Below, one piece after another: positions 4,329 to 15,362 of a DNA stretch of 24,000 bases (position 1 is the first letter of the stretch; every line of letters starts with the position of its first letter). Source of the stretch: Gracilibacillus sp. D59 (GTDB lineage Bacteria > Bacillota > Bacilli > Bacillales > Amphibacillaceae); NCBI GenBank assembly GCA_052246695.1, contig JBQQCK010000017.1, one strand, 5' to 3'. The notes beneath the pieces were generated by a model, which was not told the origin of the DNA, ran no database searches, and saw nothing but the letters and a program-made list of their open reading frames with translations. The translations under genes and the position numbers were made by a program.

Positions 4329-4455
4329 ATTTTCAACTCCTTAATTATTTGTAATATTTTTTCACATGTCTAGAAATATATGCACTCAAATAATTGGCAA
4401 TACAAAATTGATCGTGATAAAGTATCTATAGGCTGAAAAGGTTGGAGGGTTGGAC

Positions 4456-5553
4456 TTGAATTGGAGATTTTGGGAAAGTATTACTTATGATGATTATGTA
4501 CAGATTGCCATAAGTATCGGGATAATATTTTTTGCATTTATATTAAGAAAACTCTTTATTAAATATATCTACTTTCTATTACTAAAATTGGTAAGGAAAG
4601 GGAAAACTGATTTTTTAGATTATGTTTTAACCGCATTTGAAAAACCGTTGCGAGCATTAATCATTATTATTGGTGTGTATATTGCTATAGATTATTTTCC
4701 ATATTTAGATCAAGAAAATAAATTATTTGGCCAAATAATTAGCGTGAGTTTTATTATCGCCATTACTTGGGGATTGTACAATTTATCCTCTAGTTCTTCA
4801 CTGCTATTTATGAAAATCAATGATAGACTGAATTTTGAAATGGATCAAATTTTAATACCGTTTTTATCGAAAGCAGTACGAGTAATTATCATTGCCATAA
4901 GTATAAGTATTATTGCACAAGAATTTGGTTATGAAGTGAGTGGTTTTGTAGCCGGGCTTGGCCTTGGCGGTTTAGCCTTTGCATTAGCTGCACAAGAAGT
5001 AATCAAGAACTTATTTGGTGGAGTTGTGATAATTACAGAAAAGCCTTTTTCAATCGGTGATTGGATTCAGTCACCTAGTATTGAGGGAATTGTTGAAGAT
5101 ATTAACTTTCGTAGCACTATTATTCGTACATTCGCCGATTCTGTCATAACTATTCCGAACGCCACTTTATCAAATGAACCGATCACAAACTGGAGTCAAA
5201 TGGGAAAAAGACGTATTTTCTTTAATCTAGGCGTAGAATACGGCACTTCAAAAGATCAGCTCAAAACAGTCACGGAACAAATTAGAACCTACTTACAAAA
5301 TAATGAAAATATTCATCCAGAAACAATATTTGTTCGGTTCACTGAGTACAATGACAGTAGCTTAGATATTATGCTTTATTTCTTTACCAATACAATCGTT
5401 TGGGAAGAATATTTAGAAGTGAAAGAAGCTGTGAATTTTAAAATTATGGAAATATTGGAAGATGCAAATGTTTCTGTAGCATTCCCTTCCCGTTCACTTT
5501 ATTTAGATCAAGAAAGCCATGAATTCATGAATCACTTTCATTCACAAGAATAA
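4456..5553 (+). CDS. mechanosensitive ion channel (MscS family) protein
   Basis: The ORF has N-terminal TM helices followed by the MscS beta-domain signature (NLFGGVVIITEKPFSIGDWI...GIVEDINFRSTIIRT). The track start TTG 4450 directly abuts GGAGGG, so TTG 4456 (6-nt spacing) is the more plausible start. Confidence 0.85.
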   Translation: MNWRFWESITYDDYVQIAISIGIIFFAFILRKLFIKYIYFLLLKLVRKGKTDFLDYVLTAFEKPLRALIIIIGVYIAIDYFPYLDQENKLFGQIISVSFIIAITWGLYNLSSSSSLLFMKINDRLNFEMDQILIPFLSKAVRVIIIAISISIIAQEFGYEVSGFVAGLGLGGLAFALAAQEVIKNLFGGVVIITEKPFSIGDWIQSPSIEGIVEDINFRSTIIRTFADSVITIPNATLSNEPITNWSQMGKRRIFFNLGVEYGTSKDQLKTVTEQIRTYLQNNENIHPETIFVRFTEYNDSSLDIMLYFFTNTIVWEEYLEVKEAVNFKIMEILEDANVSVAFPSRSLYLDQESHEFMNHFHSQE

Positions 5554-8202: not shown

Positions 8203-9918
8203 TTATTTTTTATGATTCATTTCAATTAATTCTTTAGCGTGTATTCTCGATGTTTCCGTTAATTCGGCACCAGTAATCATCTTTCCAATTTCATCAATAC
8301 GTTCTACAAATGATAATTCTTGTATTGTTGTATATGTTCGATTATCCTGAATTACCTTTTCAATTTTTAAATGTGTATCTGCAATCGAGGCTACCTGTGG
8401 CAGGTGTGTAATACAAAGAACTTGTGATCCAATTGAAATATTATGAATTTTATCTGCCATTGATTGTGCTACACGACCACTAACTCCTGTATCTACTTCA
8501 TCAAAAATAACACTGGTAACTCCCTGATGTCTCGAAAAAATATTTTTTAGAGCTAGCATGATTCTTGACATTTCCCCACCTGAAGCGATCCGATCCAATT
8601 CCTTCACCGGTTCTCCAGGATTGGTAGAAATTAAAAATTTCACTTGGTCTATCCCATCTTCATTTGGAAATACTTTCTTTCCCTCAAAAGATATGCCTCT
8701 TTCTTTATTAGGTATCGATACATCTACTTGGAAATTTGTTTTTTCTAAATAAAGATCCTTTAATTCCGTCAAGACAGCCTTCTCCAAGTGTTTTGCAGCT
8801 TTTTTTCTAATGTTATGCAACTCTTTTGCTTCTATTAACAAGTCATTTGCTACTTCCTGTAACATGTCAGATAAATTAGCGAGGTGCTGATCACGATTTT
8901 TTATTTCATCTAATTCATCTTCAATTTTAGCACTATACGTCATGATTTCTTCAACGCTTTGGCCATACTTCCTTTTCAACTGATCAATTTCATGTAGCCT
9001 TGATTCAATTAGCTCAAGTCTGCCATGTTCATAATCCATATTTTCAACGTATTGTCTAATTTGGTATGATAATTCTTCTATTAAATAATAATGATCAACG
9101 TATTGTTGATGAATTTTTTGAATGTCTTTATTATGTTCTCCAGCTTCTTCTAGGTTATTAGCAGCATGTGATAGCCAGTCTAAGCCTCTTTGCTCACCAT
9201 GTAAAGCATTGTAGGCATCGTTCAGATTTTTATGGATCGTTTCAAAATGATGTAATTTATTACGTTCATTTGTCAGGTCTTCATCTTCATTTGGTTGTAA
9301 GTCGGCCTTTTGAATTTCATTTATTTGAAATTCCAATAAATCAATTCGCTGTGCTAATTCCTGTTCATTTTTGTTATTAGCTTCATATTTATCTTTTAAT
9401 TCTTTCCATTGTTGATAAATTCTTTGATAATCCCTCTTAAATTGAGAATGATTTGATTGATAAAAGAAATCTAACAATTCTATATGTTTATCCTGATTAA
9501 GTAATGCCTGTGTTTCATGTTGACTATGTATGTCTAAGACCGTTTGCCCAAATTCCTTCAATATTGCTAAAGTGGTTAATTTGCCGTTGATTCTACAGAT
9601 ACTCTTTCCTGAATAGGAAATAGTCCGATGTAAAACAAGCATATGATCTTCCATTATGTCAATTCCTAGTTCTTTTGCCTTTTGATAAACAGGATGTGCT
9701 GTGTCTTCTATGATAAATAAGCCTTCTAATTCAGCTTTTTTCTCACCATGTCGAACATATTCAACTGATCCTCGTCCACCAATTAATAAACCAACTGCAT
9801 CAATGATAATCGATTTCCCTGCACCTGTTTCACCAGTTAAAACAGTTAACCCTTTTTGAAATGATATATGCAGCTCATCAATAATAGCAAAATTTTTAAT
9901 GGACAATTCGGTTAACAT
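8203..9918 (-). CDS. recN: DNA repair protein RecN
   Basis: 571-aa ORF with Walker A GETGAGKS at the N-terminus, a long coiled-coil middle, and an SMC-type signature/Walker B at the C-terminus (SGGEMSRIMLAL, VIFDEVDTGVSG). Confidence 0.95.
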   Translation of the reverse strand: MLTELSIKNFAIIDELHISFQKGLTVLTGETGAGKSIIIDAVGLLIGGRGSVEYVRHGEKKAELEGLFIIEDTAHPVYQKAKELGIDIMEDHMLVLHRTISYSGKSICRINGKLTTLAILKEFGQTVLDIHSQHETQALLNQDKHIELLDFFYQSNHSQFKRDYQRIYQQWKELKDKYEANNKNEQELAQRIDLLEFQINEIQKADLQPNEDEDLTNERNKLHHFETIHKNLNDAYNALHGEQRGLDWLSHAANNLEEAGEHNKDIQKIHQQYVDHYYLIEELSYQIRQYVENMDYEHGRLELIESRLHEIDQLKRKYGQSVEEIMTYSAKIEDELDEIKNRDQHLANLSDMLQEVANDLLIEAKELHNIRKKAAKHLEKAVLTELKDLYLEKTNFQVDVSIPNKERGISFEGKKVFPNEDGIDQVKFLISTNPGEPVKELDRIASGGEMSRIMLALKNIFSRHQGVTSVIFDEVDTGVSGRVAQSMADKIHNISIGSQVLCITHLPQVASIADTHLKIEKVIQDNRTYTTIQELSFVERIDEIGKMITGAELTETSRIHAKELIEMNHKK

Positions 9919-11272: not shown

Positions 11273-13171
11273 TCATGCCCTTTTTTGCTCATCATTACTA
11301 ACGGCTAATAATTTTTTTAATTCCACAACAATTTGATCCTTTGTCAAATTTATTTCTTGCAGAAGTTCATTAACATTACCATGTTCAATATATTGATCAG
11401 GAATACCCATTCTTTTAACTTGTGGATGATAATTATTTTCTTCGGCAAACTCAAGAACTCCAGATCCAAATCCACCTTTAAGTACTGCTTCTTCCACAGT
11501 TAATATCGGGATATTTTTACTCATTCTGTCATGTAAAACCTCTTCATCTAAAGGTTTAATAAATCTTGCGTTGATTACTTCAACATGAATGCCTTGCTTT
11601 TGCAGATAGTCGCTCGCAGCAAGAGACATTTCAATTGTAGTACCAAATGTTAGGATAACGGCATCCTTTCCTTCTTTTAACACTTCCCATTTACCGATAG
11701 GCACAGTTTTTAGTTGCTGATCCATTTCAACACCTAAACCATTTCCTCTCGGAAAACGAACAGCGATTGGACCTTTATCATAAGAAATAGCCGTGTTCAC
11801 CATGTGTTGACATTCATTTTCGTCTTTTGGCATCATAATCACCATATTAGGTAAATGACGTAAGAACGCAATATCAAAAACCCCTTGATGTGTTTCACCA
11901 TCGGCCCCAACTAGCCCTGCACGGTCAATACCAAATGCAACATTTAGATTTTGGCGACAGACATCATGTACTAATTGATCATACGCTCTTTGTAAGAAGG
12001 TTGAATATATCGCAAGAAAAGGTTTCATTCCTTGCGTTGCCAAACCTGCTGAAAACGTTGTAGCATGTTGTTCTGCAATACCTACGTCAAATAAACGTTC
12101 AGGATATTTTTCCTGAAATTTATCCAGTTTGGAACCAAGAATCATGGCAGGTGTAATCACTGCAAGGCGTTCTTCGTTCGCAGCAATAGATTCTAATGTA
12201 TCACTTACAACTTGACTCCAAGCAGGTGCTGCATTAGCTGGCTTGATTTTTTCACCTGAATCAATTTTATACGGGCCAACACCATGCCATTTATCTTTCT
12301 TATCTGATTCTGCAGGGTAATATCCTTTTCCTTTTTGCGTAATAACATGAACCAATACAGGCCCTTGTGTTTTTTTTGCATATTCAATATGCTCTTCTAA
12401 ATCCTTAAAATCATGGCCGTCAACTGGTCCGAAATAAGTGAAACCAAATTCCTCAAACAACATTCCCGGAACCATAAAATATTTCATACTATCCTTCACT
12501 CGTTCTGCTGTTTGAGCAATCATGCCTCCAACCGCTGGAATTCTTTTTAACAGGATTTCTAATTCATCCTTGACTCGATTGTATTTTCCGGCACTTCTCA
12601 TTCTTCCCAATGCATTATGTAGTGCCCCAACATTGCCTGCAATAGACATTTCATTATCATTGAGAATAACCGTGATATTTTTCTTTTCATGACCAATATG
12701 ATTTAAAGCTTCCAACGCCATGCCGCCTGTTAAAGCCCCATCACCAATAATTGGTACAACATAATTGGTATCTTTTTTCATGTCACGAGCGACTGCCATA
12801 CCCATAGCCGCTGAAAGTGACGTTGAGCTATGTCCTGCTTCCCAAACATCATGCTCACTTTCGATCATTTTTGGAAAACCGCAAAGACCTTTATACTGTC
12901 TAAGCGTATCAAATTGATCTGTACGTCCTGTCAAGATTTTGTGAATATAGGATTGGTGTCCGACATCAAAGATTAATTTATCTTCAGGACTATTAAATTG
13001 CTTATGCAACGCAAGTGTTAGTTCTACCACTCCTAGATTAGCACCTAAATGACCTCCTGTTACGGATAACTTTTCAATTAGGAACTGACGGACTTCACTA
13101 GCTAATACTTCTAGTTCTTCCGCATTTAATTGTTTAAGAAATGCTGGATTTTTTATCTTGGTTAGATCCAT
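11273..13171 (-). CDS. dxs: 1-deoxy-D-xylulose-5-phosphate synthase
   Basis: TPP-dependent transketolase-like protein ([34 protein letters not shown]). The start is taken at ATG 13171 ([13 protein letters not shown], aligning with the B. subtilis Dxs N-terminus), with GGGAGG 8 nt upstream. The track TTG at 13198 is probably spurious. Confidence 0.95.
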
Positions 13172-13206
13172 GAAGGAATCCTCCCTACTTTTATTCAAGA
13201 TTCGCC

Positions 13207-13785
13207 TTATTTATTCGACAATACTTTTATTTTAAATTTTTCTTCTAAAAATGCAATTATTTTACCAACTATAAATATTATATTAGTTGATGAATGAATG
13301 GCAAAGAACTTACCCAGTGCCTTACCTCCTACTGTTAATGCAGCAACAAGGCTTGTAAGAATTACGTTAATGGATAGATGAAATGTTGTTCCTTCCCCAT
13401 AGCCAAACCCATTTGAAACTTGCAGTATAACGATAGCAGATGCTGTTCCACTTATTATACCAGAAATATCTCCAATCACATCATTACAAAAGCTGGCAAA
13501 TCGATCAGCATTTCTGACAATCTGTATCGCTTGCTTGGAACCGCTTACCTTCTCTGCTGCCATTGCATGAAATGGTACTTCATCTGCTGCAGTTGCTGCT
13601 ATACCTAGCATGTCAAAAAACACACCTATAAATACAATAATAAATACGATCACTAAGCCAATGATCGACATTACTCCATTTAATATGGACGAAGATACTA
13701 CTGAAAAAATAGCCGCTAACACAAACGTGATAACGGCAATGCTTAAACTAAATTTTATCGACTTTTGCAAATGTTGTTTATTCAT
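13207..13785 (-). CDS. oapA: small multi-pass membrane protein, OLE-associated protein A (OapA)-like
   Basis: 192-aa ORF with about four hydrophobic helices and a polar loop ([29 protein letters not shown]). RBS GAGG lies 7 nt upstream of the ATG. It is wedged between the large structured RNA and dxs (35-nt gap to dxs), the arrangement described for oapA. Confidence 0.75.
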
Positions 13786-13839
13786 ATTAAAACCTCGTTA
13801 ATTGGGTACATTATGTATACAGGTATGGAATGGTCATTT

Positions 13840-14438
13840 TAAAGGTAAAAACTGCGGCTTAGGTCCAGTAGGTTTTCCCAGACAGGTACCGAGTGTTGCC
13901 ACTCTGGCGGTTCCCCTTTAAGCCTGTCTTAGCGCAGTCACCCGACGCTAGACTGGATTACCACTTAGTCCGCACTATAATCCCTTTTAAATGTCCTATT
14001 GGAACAGTCTAGGAGATTTCCTCAACAACCCTTAACCGTTTCCTAGCCTCTTTTGCAGTACGAATTTCATACAGAAAAACATGTTCTAAACTAGTGGCCA
14101 TCCAGTTAAGAACACTTGTTACCTGTAATCCCCTTCGTACCACTCAAGGCAGGCTACGCTACAAATAAGGATTCCCTCACCCTTATTACGTAGGTTCATA
14201 CCCCATTCCATACTTCATTCTTGGCTAAGCATAAAATACAGATATGGGCCTCCGCGGAAGAAGGGTCGTCGCCCACATGCCTTTGTGGATCGCCCTTCAA
14301 CCTTAACTCCCAGCATCGACCCAAGGCTGGGCGCCTCAAGCCAACACAAGGAACTTCATCGATGTGCCCTTTGGCGGATTTTTAGGCCCGCCTTCAGAAA
14401 CGGAGGATTGACTAGAATACTGCACCATCCCATTAACT
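13840..14438 (-). ncRNA. ole: OLE-class large structured non-coding RNA (~600 nt; ends approximate)
   Basis: The six-frame track has no ORF anywhere in 13802-14477. Hand-counted GC is 55% (13861-13920), 53% (14221-14280) and 58% (14281-14340), against 25% in 13741-13800. Many nested helices are present, including a GNRA-capped hairpin. The context ispA-RNA-oapA-dxs and the same-strand orientation match the published OLE locus. Confidence 0.75.
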
Positions 14439-14445
14439 TACTTCA

Positions 14446-14474
14446 AATATAACATGTTTTTTATTTTTTCTCAA
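14446..14474 (-). promoter_or_regulatory. candidate sigma-A promoter with extended -10 directly upstream of the OLE-like RNA
   Basis: The minus strand reads TTGAGA (14474-14469), a 17-nt spacer, then TGtTATATT with the -10 hexamer at 14451-14446. The -35 starts 4 nt after the ispA stop codon. Confidence 0.55.
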
Positions 14475-14477
14475 TAA

Positions 14478-15362
14478 TTACTGATCTCGCTCACTTAAAT
14501 AACTACTTATTAAAGCCAGATCTGTGTTTTCCAGACCAACTTCCTTCAGACATTGGGCTGCTTCCTTTACATACTTTGCTTTATATTGTTTAGCTCCGTC
14601 TAATCCTAATATGCTTGGGTATGTGCTTTTCTCATTATCAATATCACTGCCAACACGTTTACCAATTGTTGCTTGATCACCTTCGATGTCTAAAATATCA
14701 TCTTGAATTTGAAATATAATACCTAAATAATCACCATATTTCTTTAAAATTTCCATTTTAGCTTGAGATATACCTGCTAAGAATCCGCCAATTTCTATTG
14801 CAAATGAAATAAGGCGTCCTGTTTTTAAATGATGAATGTTTTCCAGGTCTTTGATGGAAATGTCTTGGTTTTCTGCTTCCATATCCAAAAATTGTCCAGC
14901 AACCATCCCTTCTAATCCGCTTGCTTTCGATAGCTTGGCTACAATATTAACTTTTTCTCTGTCAGTATATAAATCGGAAGTGGTAATAACATGAAAGCTA
15001 TTAGTTAATAACCCATCGCCCGCTAAAATAGCTGTTGCTTCATCAAACTTTTTATGATTGGTTAGTATTCCTCTGCGATACGTATCATCGTCCATTGCAG
15101 GGAGATCATCATGGATCAGAGAATAGGTATGGATCATTTCTAATGCAATTGCAGCAGGATACACTTTTACTGGATCTTCTCCAAGTCCTGTACAAGTTAA
15201 TTTCATTAAAAGTGGACGTAATCTTTTACCGCCTGCTTCAATGGAATATAAAACGGATTCACGTAAACGATCGGGGATATTTAACCCTTTAAGGTAAGAC
15301 ATCAGTGCGCTATTTAATTGTTGTTGTTCTTTCAGTAACAATGATTGTAATGATTGATCCAC
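14478..15362 (-). CDS. ispA: farnesyl diphosphate synthase (polyprenyl synthetase family)
   Basis: 294 aa with the first Asp-rich motif LIHDDLPAMDDD and the second FQIQDDILD. Synteny is xseB-ispA. Confidence 0.93.
   Translation of the reverse strand: MDQSLQSLLLKEQQQLNSALMSYLKGLNIPDRLRESVLYSIEAGGKRLRPLLMKLTCTGLGEDPVKVYPAAIALEMIHTYSLIHDDLPAMDDDTYRRGILTNHKKFDEATAILAGDGLLTNSFHVITTSDLYTDREKVNIVAKLSKASGLEGMVAGQFLDMEAENQDISIKDLENIHHLKTGRLISFAIEIGGFLAGISQAKMEILKKYGDYLGIIFQIQDDILDIEGDQATIGKRVGSDIDNEKSTYPSILGLDGAKQYKAKYVKEAAQCLKEVGLENTDLALISSYLSERDQ

Follow-up and report, generated by a model that had tools for sequence, protein, structure and literature searches.

OLE-associated protein A (OapA, BH2780) of Halalkalibacterium halodurans C-125 is a 21-kDa transmembrane protein (PMC12054373). 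It binds OLE, a large non-coding RNA, with cooperativity and brings the RNA to the membrane (Block et al., 2011, as cited in PMC12265935). The RNA and the protein show near-complete mutual inclusion across genomes (PMC11332333). The PM1 allele of OapA carries D100A and D104A, at "two strictly conserved aspartate residues" (PMC9723947; PMC7936274), and is dominant negative rather than a plain loss of function (PMC7936274). A second group to be compared is formed by MpfA, CorB, CorC and CNNM, in which a CNNM/DUF21 membrane domain (PF01595) is combined with a CBS pair and a CorC_HlyC domain. A weak CNNM similarity of OapA, including a comparison with 7M1U, is already published, and MpfA is anticorrelated with OLE/OapA (PMC11332333).

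We examined a 24,000-nt window (the whole stretch of DNA analysed) from contig JBQQCK010000017.1 of Gracilibacillus sp. D59. OLE was the single RNA family matched in the window by Rfam, and the ORF that follows it (Table 1) is almost certainly oapA, orthologous to the gene for H. halodurans OapA. An earlier note on this DNA had proposed the ORF product as the OapA partner of the large RNA. That proposal is borne out by the full-length OLE gene upstream, by homology to the H. halodurans protein, by a shared pair of aspartates, and by the co-occurrence of the RNA and the gene in all 80 related loci that we sampled.

Table 1. Features of the ole-oapA region in the Gracilibacillus sp. D59 window
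Feature	Coordinates	Strand	Evidence and remarks
ispA (polyprenyl synthetase), upstream neighbour	14478..15362	-	Pfam PF00348, E 1e-59
Promoter-like site upstream of OLE	14446..14474	-	TTGAGA, 17-nt spacer, TG-extended TATATT; consensus scan; between ispA stop and OLE 5' end
OLE RNA gene	13814..14444	-	Rfam RF01071, 533.4 bits, E 5e-154; model positions 1-616 of 616, full length
oapA Shine-Dalgarno GAGG	13793..13796	-	Direct sequence reading; 7-nt spacer TTTTAAT, then ATG
oapA CDS	13207..13785	-	ATG start, 192 aa, stop codon included; ORF listing and homology
Codons D102 to D106 (motif N-D-V-I-G-D)	13468..13482	-	Invariant Asp pair, matching D100/D104 of H. halodurans OapA
Best sigma-70-like match in the region	13277..13304	-	TTGCCA-16-TATAAT (11 of 12); inside oapA 3' end, 105 nt upstream of dxs ATG
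oapA stop codon TAA	13209..13207	-	
dxs (1-deoxy-D-xylulose-5-phosphate synthase), downstream neighbour	11273..13171	-	ORF; N-terminus MDLTKIK, RBS GGGAGG

The H. halodurans protein was absent among the members of the ten 50%-cluster representatives inspected. It was recovered, as a 200-aa sequence here called P0397, when the homology search was repeated with the Alkalihalobacillus sp. CinArs1 orthologue (locus L037) as query. BLASTP aligned the window protein with this OLE-adjacent protein over 188 aa without gaps, at 59% identity and 78% positives (E 9e-79), so that the likeness to the H. halodurans neighbour of OLE on which the earlier proposal would depend is present. The P0397 gene (locus L081) is placed between ispA and dxs, the latter recognised by its DXP_synthase_N Pfam domain, and begins 49 nt past a full-length H. 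halodurans OLE RNA (Rfam, 538.6 bits). P0397 has a mass of 21.2 kDa and aspartates at positions 100 and 104, with which D102 and D106 of the window protein align. By its position, size and Asp numbering P0397 should be BH2780, from a strain that may differ from C-125. Homology to P0397 and the Asp positions thus tie the ORF to the studied OapA by sequence and not by position alone.

The product of the window gene has the size expected of OapA (20.3 kDa against about 21 kDa), four predicted transmembrane helices and a computed pI of 9.3. NCBIfam has no model for it, the best match being a meaningless 10.5 bits. Its sole family assignment is the weak CNNM/DUF21 match described below, itself published for OapA (PMC11332333), and no clear unrelated function was assigned. 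The identification as OapA is supported, and we found nothing against it.

The likeness to H. halodurans OapA extends from size (192 and 200 aa) and the invariant Asp pair to the position of the gene, directly after OLE in the ispA-dxs interval, and to a predicted four-helix membrane architecture with weak CNNM similarity. The two proteins differ at the C-terminus, where the lysine-rich tail of the H. halodurans protein (GKKKKEKNSRK) is missing from the window protein, and the hosts differ as well, Gracilibacillus being moderately halophilic whereas H. halodurans is an alkaliphile.

For co-occurrence, one genome per GTDB species was scanned with the motif [FVI]C[NA]D[VI][VI]GD[IV]. At least 600 places matched, 585 of them encoding a relative. 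The loci examined were those of the best 80 of at least 585 relatives, each from another species and 39-90% identical to the window protein, so that the most distant members lie outside the sample. They span Gracilibacillus, Halobacillus, Virgibacillus, Fictibacillus, Rossellomorea, Paenibacillus and Laceyella, and include one Clostridiaceae and two Oscillospiraceae metagenome-assembled genomes. Searching with the window OLE (nhmmer) placed OLE directly upstream on the same strand in every one of these loci (80/80, the best 80 of at least 585). Rfam confirmed it in all 8 loci picked for divergence or for an unusually long gap between OLE and the gene, with scores of 376-547 bits. The occurrence of the family apart from OLE, which would have told against the earlier note, was not seen in this sample.

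The gap between the end of the nhmmer match and the nearest in-frame ATG had a median of 41 nt and was at most 80 nt in 70 of the 80 loci. At the window locus, where both are on the same strand, 28 nt separate the end of the Rfam match from the oapA ATG. The final paired positions of the OLE model are about 50 nt upstream of that ATG, in agreement with the earlier reading that the gene starts tens of nucleotides from the last helix of the RNA. A second RNA family, the Bacillaceae-1 sRNA (RF01690), matched in the flanks of two related loci (L027, 141..206 and 8589..8654; L069, 7577..7641); these matches are unrelated to oapA.

Our consensus scan returned promoter-like and terminator-like sites in the region in numbers equal to chance expectation. 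The sigma-A-type site before OLE (TTGAG[A/C], about 17 nt, TGnTATAAT) is in register in most of the related loci compared. The H. halodurans locus has a sigma-A-type extended -10 promoter-like site before OLE likewise (L081, 4295..4323), and its -10 box abuts the 5' end of the published OLE constructs (primer KH013, PMC12054373). On this sequence evidence, the corresponding site in the window probably drives an OLE-oapA transcript. OLE RNA is reported to be highly abundant, and the conserved promoter before it fits that abundance.

No terminator-like site was found by the consensus scan between OLE and oapA, and the 28-nt gap is too short for a terminator, so oapA is probably translated from the OLE transcript, from the promoter upstream of the RNA. 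A terminator-like hairpin inside the oapA ORF (13667..13647) was dismissed because the number of such sites in the region is what chance would give. Read-through from the OLE-oapA transcript into dxs may occur. The best sigma-70-like match in the region was also considered as an internal dxs promoter, and weaker versions of it are seen at the equivalent position of related loci. Because it shares codons with the nearly invariant F-A-I and I-I residues, its recurrence is indistinguishable from coding constraint.

The oapA gene sits within a long run of minus-strand genes. By Pfam the order is spoIIIAE, spoIIIAF, an unassigned ORF, spoIIIAH, accB, accC, asp23, nusB, folD, xseA, xseB, ispA, OLE, oapA, dxs, a tlyA-like methyltransferase gene, argR, recN, spoIVB and spo0A, with xseB assigned by position and tblastn matches rather than Pfam. 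The only large plus-strand gene in this stretch encodes an MscS-type mechanosensitive channel (4450..5553) and adjoins spo0A. For dxs, the ATG at 13171, with its RBS and typical Dxs N-terminus, is the more likely start than the TTG at 13198 in the mechanical ORF list, and agrees with the dxs starts in L037 and L065. Between it and the oapA stop codon lie 35 nt, the distance that the earlier note had read.

In 57 of the 80 loci OLE is immediately preceded by ispA and oapA immediately followed by dxs, and the order xseA-xseB-ispA-OLE-oapA-dxs-tlyA-argR recurs, including in the Clostridiaceae locus (L076). A dxs gene was matched by tblastn in 63 loci, with 41-88% identity. It does not directly follow oapA in 20 of the 80: three have dxs with just its distal part matched, and in the other 17 dxs went undetected by tblastn and oapA is followed directly by the tlyA-like gene. 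These 17 loci (L008-L010, L012, L015, L016, L018-L020, L022-L025, L040, L041, L059 and L078) are mostly from Virgibacillus, Oceanobacillus, Lentibacillus, Ornithinibacillus, Halolactibacillus and relatives. The module therefore goes with ispA and tlyA, not with dxs. ispA was not found in three of the 80 loci, two on contigs that end there and one on an Oscillospiraceae contig.

The earlier note had described the RNA and the gene as a two-gene insertion between ispA and dxs, from comparison with B. subtilis, in which ispA is presumably followed by dxs directly with nothing between. This part of the note needs adjusting. Since the order recurs in 57 of 80 loci, the Clostridiaceae one among them, the module is better taken as an old component of the cluster than as a recent insertion. 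The ispA-OLE-oapA-dxs order looks ancestral and kept across Bacilli and Clostridia, and the module would be missing from OLE-free lineages such as B. subtilis. In Gracilibacillus sp. D59 the ole-oapA module is a standard one, of a kind already known, in its canonical ispA/dxs neighbourhood. One record in the set, titled "Pseudomonas sp. ISL-84" (JAGGRA010000014.1, locus L042), holds an xseA-ispA-OLE-oapA-dxs locus typical of Bacillaceae, in which identity to the query protein is 63%, and is probably mislabelled or contaminated.

Residue conservation was examined in two alignments, one of 42 diverse family members (30-65% identical to the window protein) and one of 62 closer homologues (55-94% identical). 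Eight residues are invariant in the first: D58, D102, G105, D106, G113, T151, K155 and K159. The family motifs in this alignment are FD-x2-G, PFHAMAA, RNA-x5-FCNDV(V/I)GD-x2-G-x2-SG and ALTVGGKA-x-GK. D102 and D106, in the motif NDVIGD, are invariant in both alignments. K155 and K159 are invariant in the 62-sequence alignment too, and R91 is nearly so there.

Kyte-Doolittle hydropathy gave hydrophobic stretches at residues 8-68 (two helices, about 12-35 and 40-64), 103-121 (a segment of about 101-123) and 134-157, with a weaker one at 162-180. An AlphaFold2 model built with the 62 homologues had helices at 3-35, 40-66, 69-77, 83-126 and 134-184, at moderate confidence (mean pLDDT 78, pTM 0.60). 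Both methods concur on four long hydrophobic helices. The four hydrophobic segments with a polar central region (65-100) that had been noticed from the translation are recovered by both, and an amphipathic C-terminal helix is added to them.

The N-terminus has three lysines and arginines, the 65-100 loop four and the C-terminal tail six, and the two short loops predicted to be outside have none. By the positive-inside rule, which here predicts the cytoplasmic side, this suggests that both termini of OapA are inside. D58, D102 and D106 would then lie within predicted membrane helices, and K155 and K159 where helix 4 meets the cytoplasm. R91 would be cytoplasmic as well, a cluster of conserved positive charges on that face being expected of OapA. 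Acidic residues that are buried and invariant would fit a cation-binding site, and so lend support, short of proof, to the published minimal-transporter hypothesis taken up below.

The sole Pfam match of the window protein was to CNNM/DUF21 (18.0 bits, E 0.0025, below the 28.4-bit gathering score), aligning residues 46-180 with profile positions 2-127. Among the 42 diverse relatives, 29 matched CNNM at E<=0.01, the best at 4.5e-8. The relationship of OapA to CNNM is, from these profile matches, real but distant. Since the aligned part starts with the second hydrophobic helix, OapA appears to consist of one N-terminal helix followed by a CNNM-like three-helix unit. No CBS pair or CorC_HlyC domain was matched by Pfam in the window protein, which ends 35 residues past its last membrane helix.

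Foldseek against the PDB ranked chains of the archaeal CNNM MtCorB (7m1t, 7m1u) in the top three places for this model of pLDDT 78 (probability 0.99-1.00, E 0.03-0.26, TM 0.44-0.47), with the CorC transmembrane domain 7cff seventh. Searched against PDB sequences, the single protein gave a chance match only (E 0.97) and the family profile nothing at E<=10, so no solved relative of OapA is detectable by sequence. OapA shares a distantly related membrane domain with the MpfA/CorB/CorC/CNNM proteins, and differs from them in four respects: it scores below the family threshold, has an extra N-terminal transmembrane helix before the CNNM-like part, lacks their CBS and CorC_HlyC domains, and is always paired with a 630-nt structured RNA in the 80 loci sampled.

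By analogy with H. halodurans, the window protein would insert in the cytoplasmic membrane through about four helices and form dimers. It would bind OLE RNA cooperatively close to stems P2 and P4a, each RNA taking up two or more protein molecules, and binding would thereby bring the RNA to the membrane (PMC12265935; PMC7936274; PMC9723947). The resulting OLE-OapA ribonucleoprotein may help the cell to tolerate ethanol, cold, Mg2+ above about 2 mM and poor carbon sources, as in that species (PMC12265935; PMC7936274; PMC10898510). According to a published hypothesis, the membrane part of OapA may be a minimal divalent-cation transport domain of the CNNM/DUF21 type, and OLE RNA may stand in for the CBS and CorC domains that MpfA-type Mg2+ exporters have in the cytoplasm.

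It is possible, if somewhat unlikely, that OapA is a passive membrane anchor for OLE that transports no ion, its resemblance to CNNM being an evolutionary relic. RNA binding and membrane localisation are the only experimentally validated activities of OapA (PMC7936274), the family profile retrieves no CNNM structure by sequence, and the helix 4 consensus of the family, VGGKAxGK, also speaks for an anchor. Against this, three invariant aspartates in predicted membrane helices (D58, D102, D106) would be costly to keep unless they bound a cation or another polar ligand. Nor does the D100A/D104A mutant behave as a simple loss of function, being dominant negative (PMC7936274), loss of the complex brings Mg2+ sensitivity, and MpfA is anticorrelated with OLE (PMC11332333).

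We regard as very improbable that the gene encodes a stand-alone or truncated CNNM/CorB/MpfA-type Mg2+/Co2+ transporter, independent of OLE and adjacent to it by chance. Such a reading would draw on the Pfam match, weak as it is in the window protein and seen in 29 of 42 relatives, on the CorB structures that are the best fold matches, and on the names given to relatives in databases ("Mg2+ and Co2+ transporter CorB", "CBS domain containing-hemolysin-like protein"). However, the CNNM score lies under the Pfam cut-off (18 against 28.4 bits), neither a CBS pair nor a CorC_HlyC domain is present, and a 192-aa protein whose best 150 family representatives measure 119-274 aa is not a fragment of a transporter of about 440 aa. 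Adjacency to OLE in 80 of 80 loci from two Bacillota classes is impossible by chance, and the orthologue binds OLE RNA experimentally (PMC12265935). A transport role within the ribonucleoprotein is compatible with the identification as OapA, and to that extent the two readings overlap.

That the ORF is a chance reading frame or pseudogene remnant in the spacer between OLE and dxs is already refuted by conservation: its ATG is preceded by a proper RBS, a record with an identical protein exists, 39 columns are invariant among the 62 homologues of 55-94% identity, and collinear full-length alignments persist down to 30-40% identity. The 192-aa minus-strand ORF with its ATG at 13785, and the good RBS (GAGG, 7-nt spacer) described for it earlier, are accordingly real. 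The record with the identical protein is the ORF product from Gracilibacillus sp. D59 itself. Two opposite-strand ORFs of 62-63 aa (13420..13608 and 13610..13801) were taken as shadows of the conserved gene.

In a 90%-clustered database 3548 homologues of the window protein were found at E<=1e-3, the closest of 190-200 aa. When all 1.84 billion 50%-cluster representatives were scanned with HMMER, 1065 matched the OapA family at E<=1e-3, 768 of them at E<=1e-10. Most of the best 150 are 180-220 aa long, which marks a compact family of small proteins rather than fragments of larger ones. Seven representatives (P0122, P0124, P0130, P0154, P0200, P0206 and P0211) are 261-274 aa long, about 55-100 additional N-terminal residues preceding their OapA-like part, which could mean a mis-called start or a real variant.

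The gene arrangement, with a conserved promoter before OLE and a median of 41 nt between the RNA and the oapA start among the 80 loci, allows one further speculation, which we hold to be doubtful. With too little space between them for a terminator, OLE and oapA probably share one transcript in essentially all species, and the ribonucleoprotein might assemble in cis: co-translational insertion of nascent OapA would drag the message with its attached OLE to the membrane, where the new protein would capture the RNA. In E. coli that co-expresses OapA, OLE is reportedly found at the periphery of the cell, an observation by which cis assembly is neither required nor ruled out. If true, assembly in cis would be a route for the delivery of OLE RNA to the membrane, or even for its insertion.

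For experiments on the family, the alignments define an invariant core to target, made up of the acidic residues D58, D102 and D106, predicted to be membrane-embedded, and the lysines K155 and K159. The locus itself brings nothing new on the biochemical role of the OLE ribonucleoprotein, on divalent-cation transport by OapA or on the way in which the RNA reaches or spans the membrane; the new output is a better protein name. The protein, carried in public records as "hypothetical protein" or "CNNM transmembrane domain-containing protein", can be named OapA.
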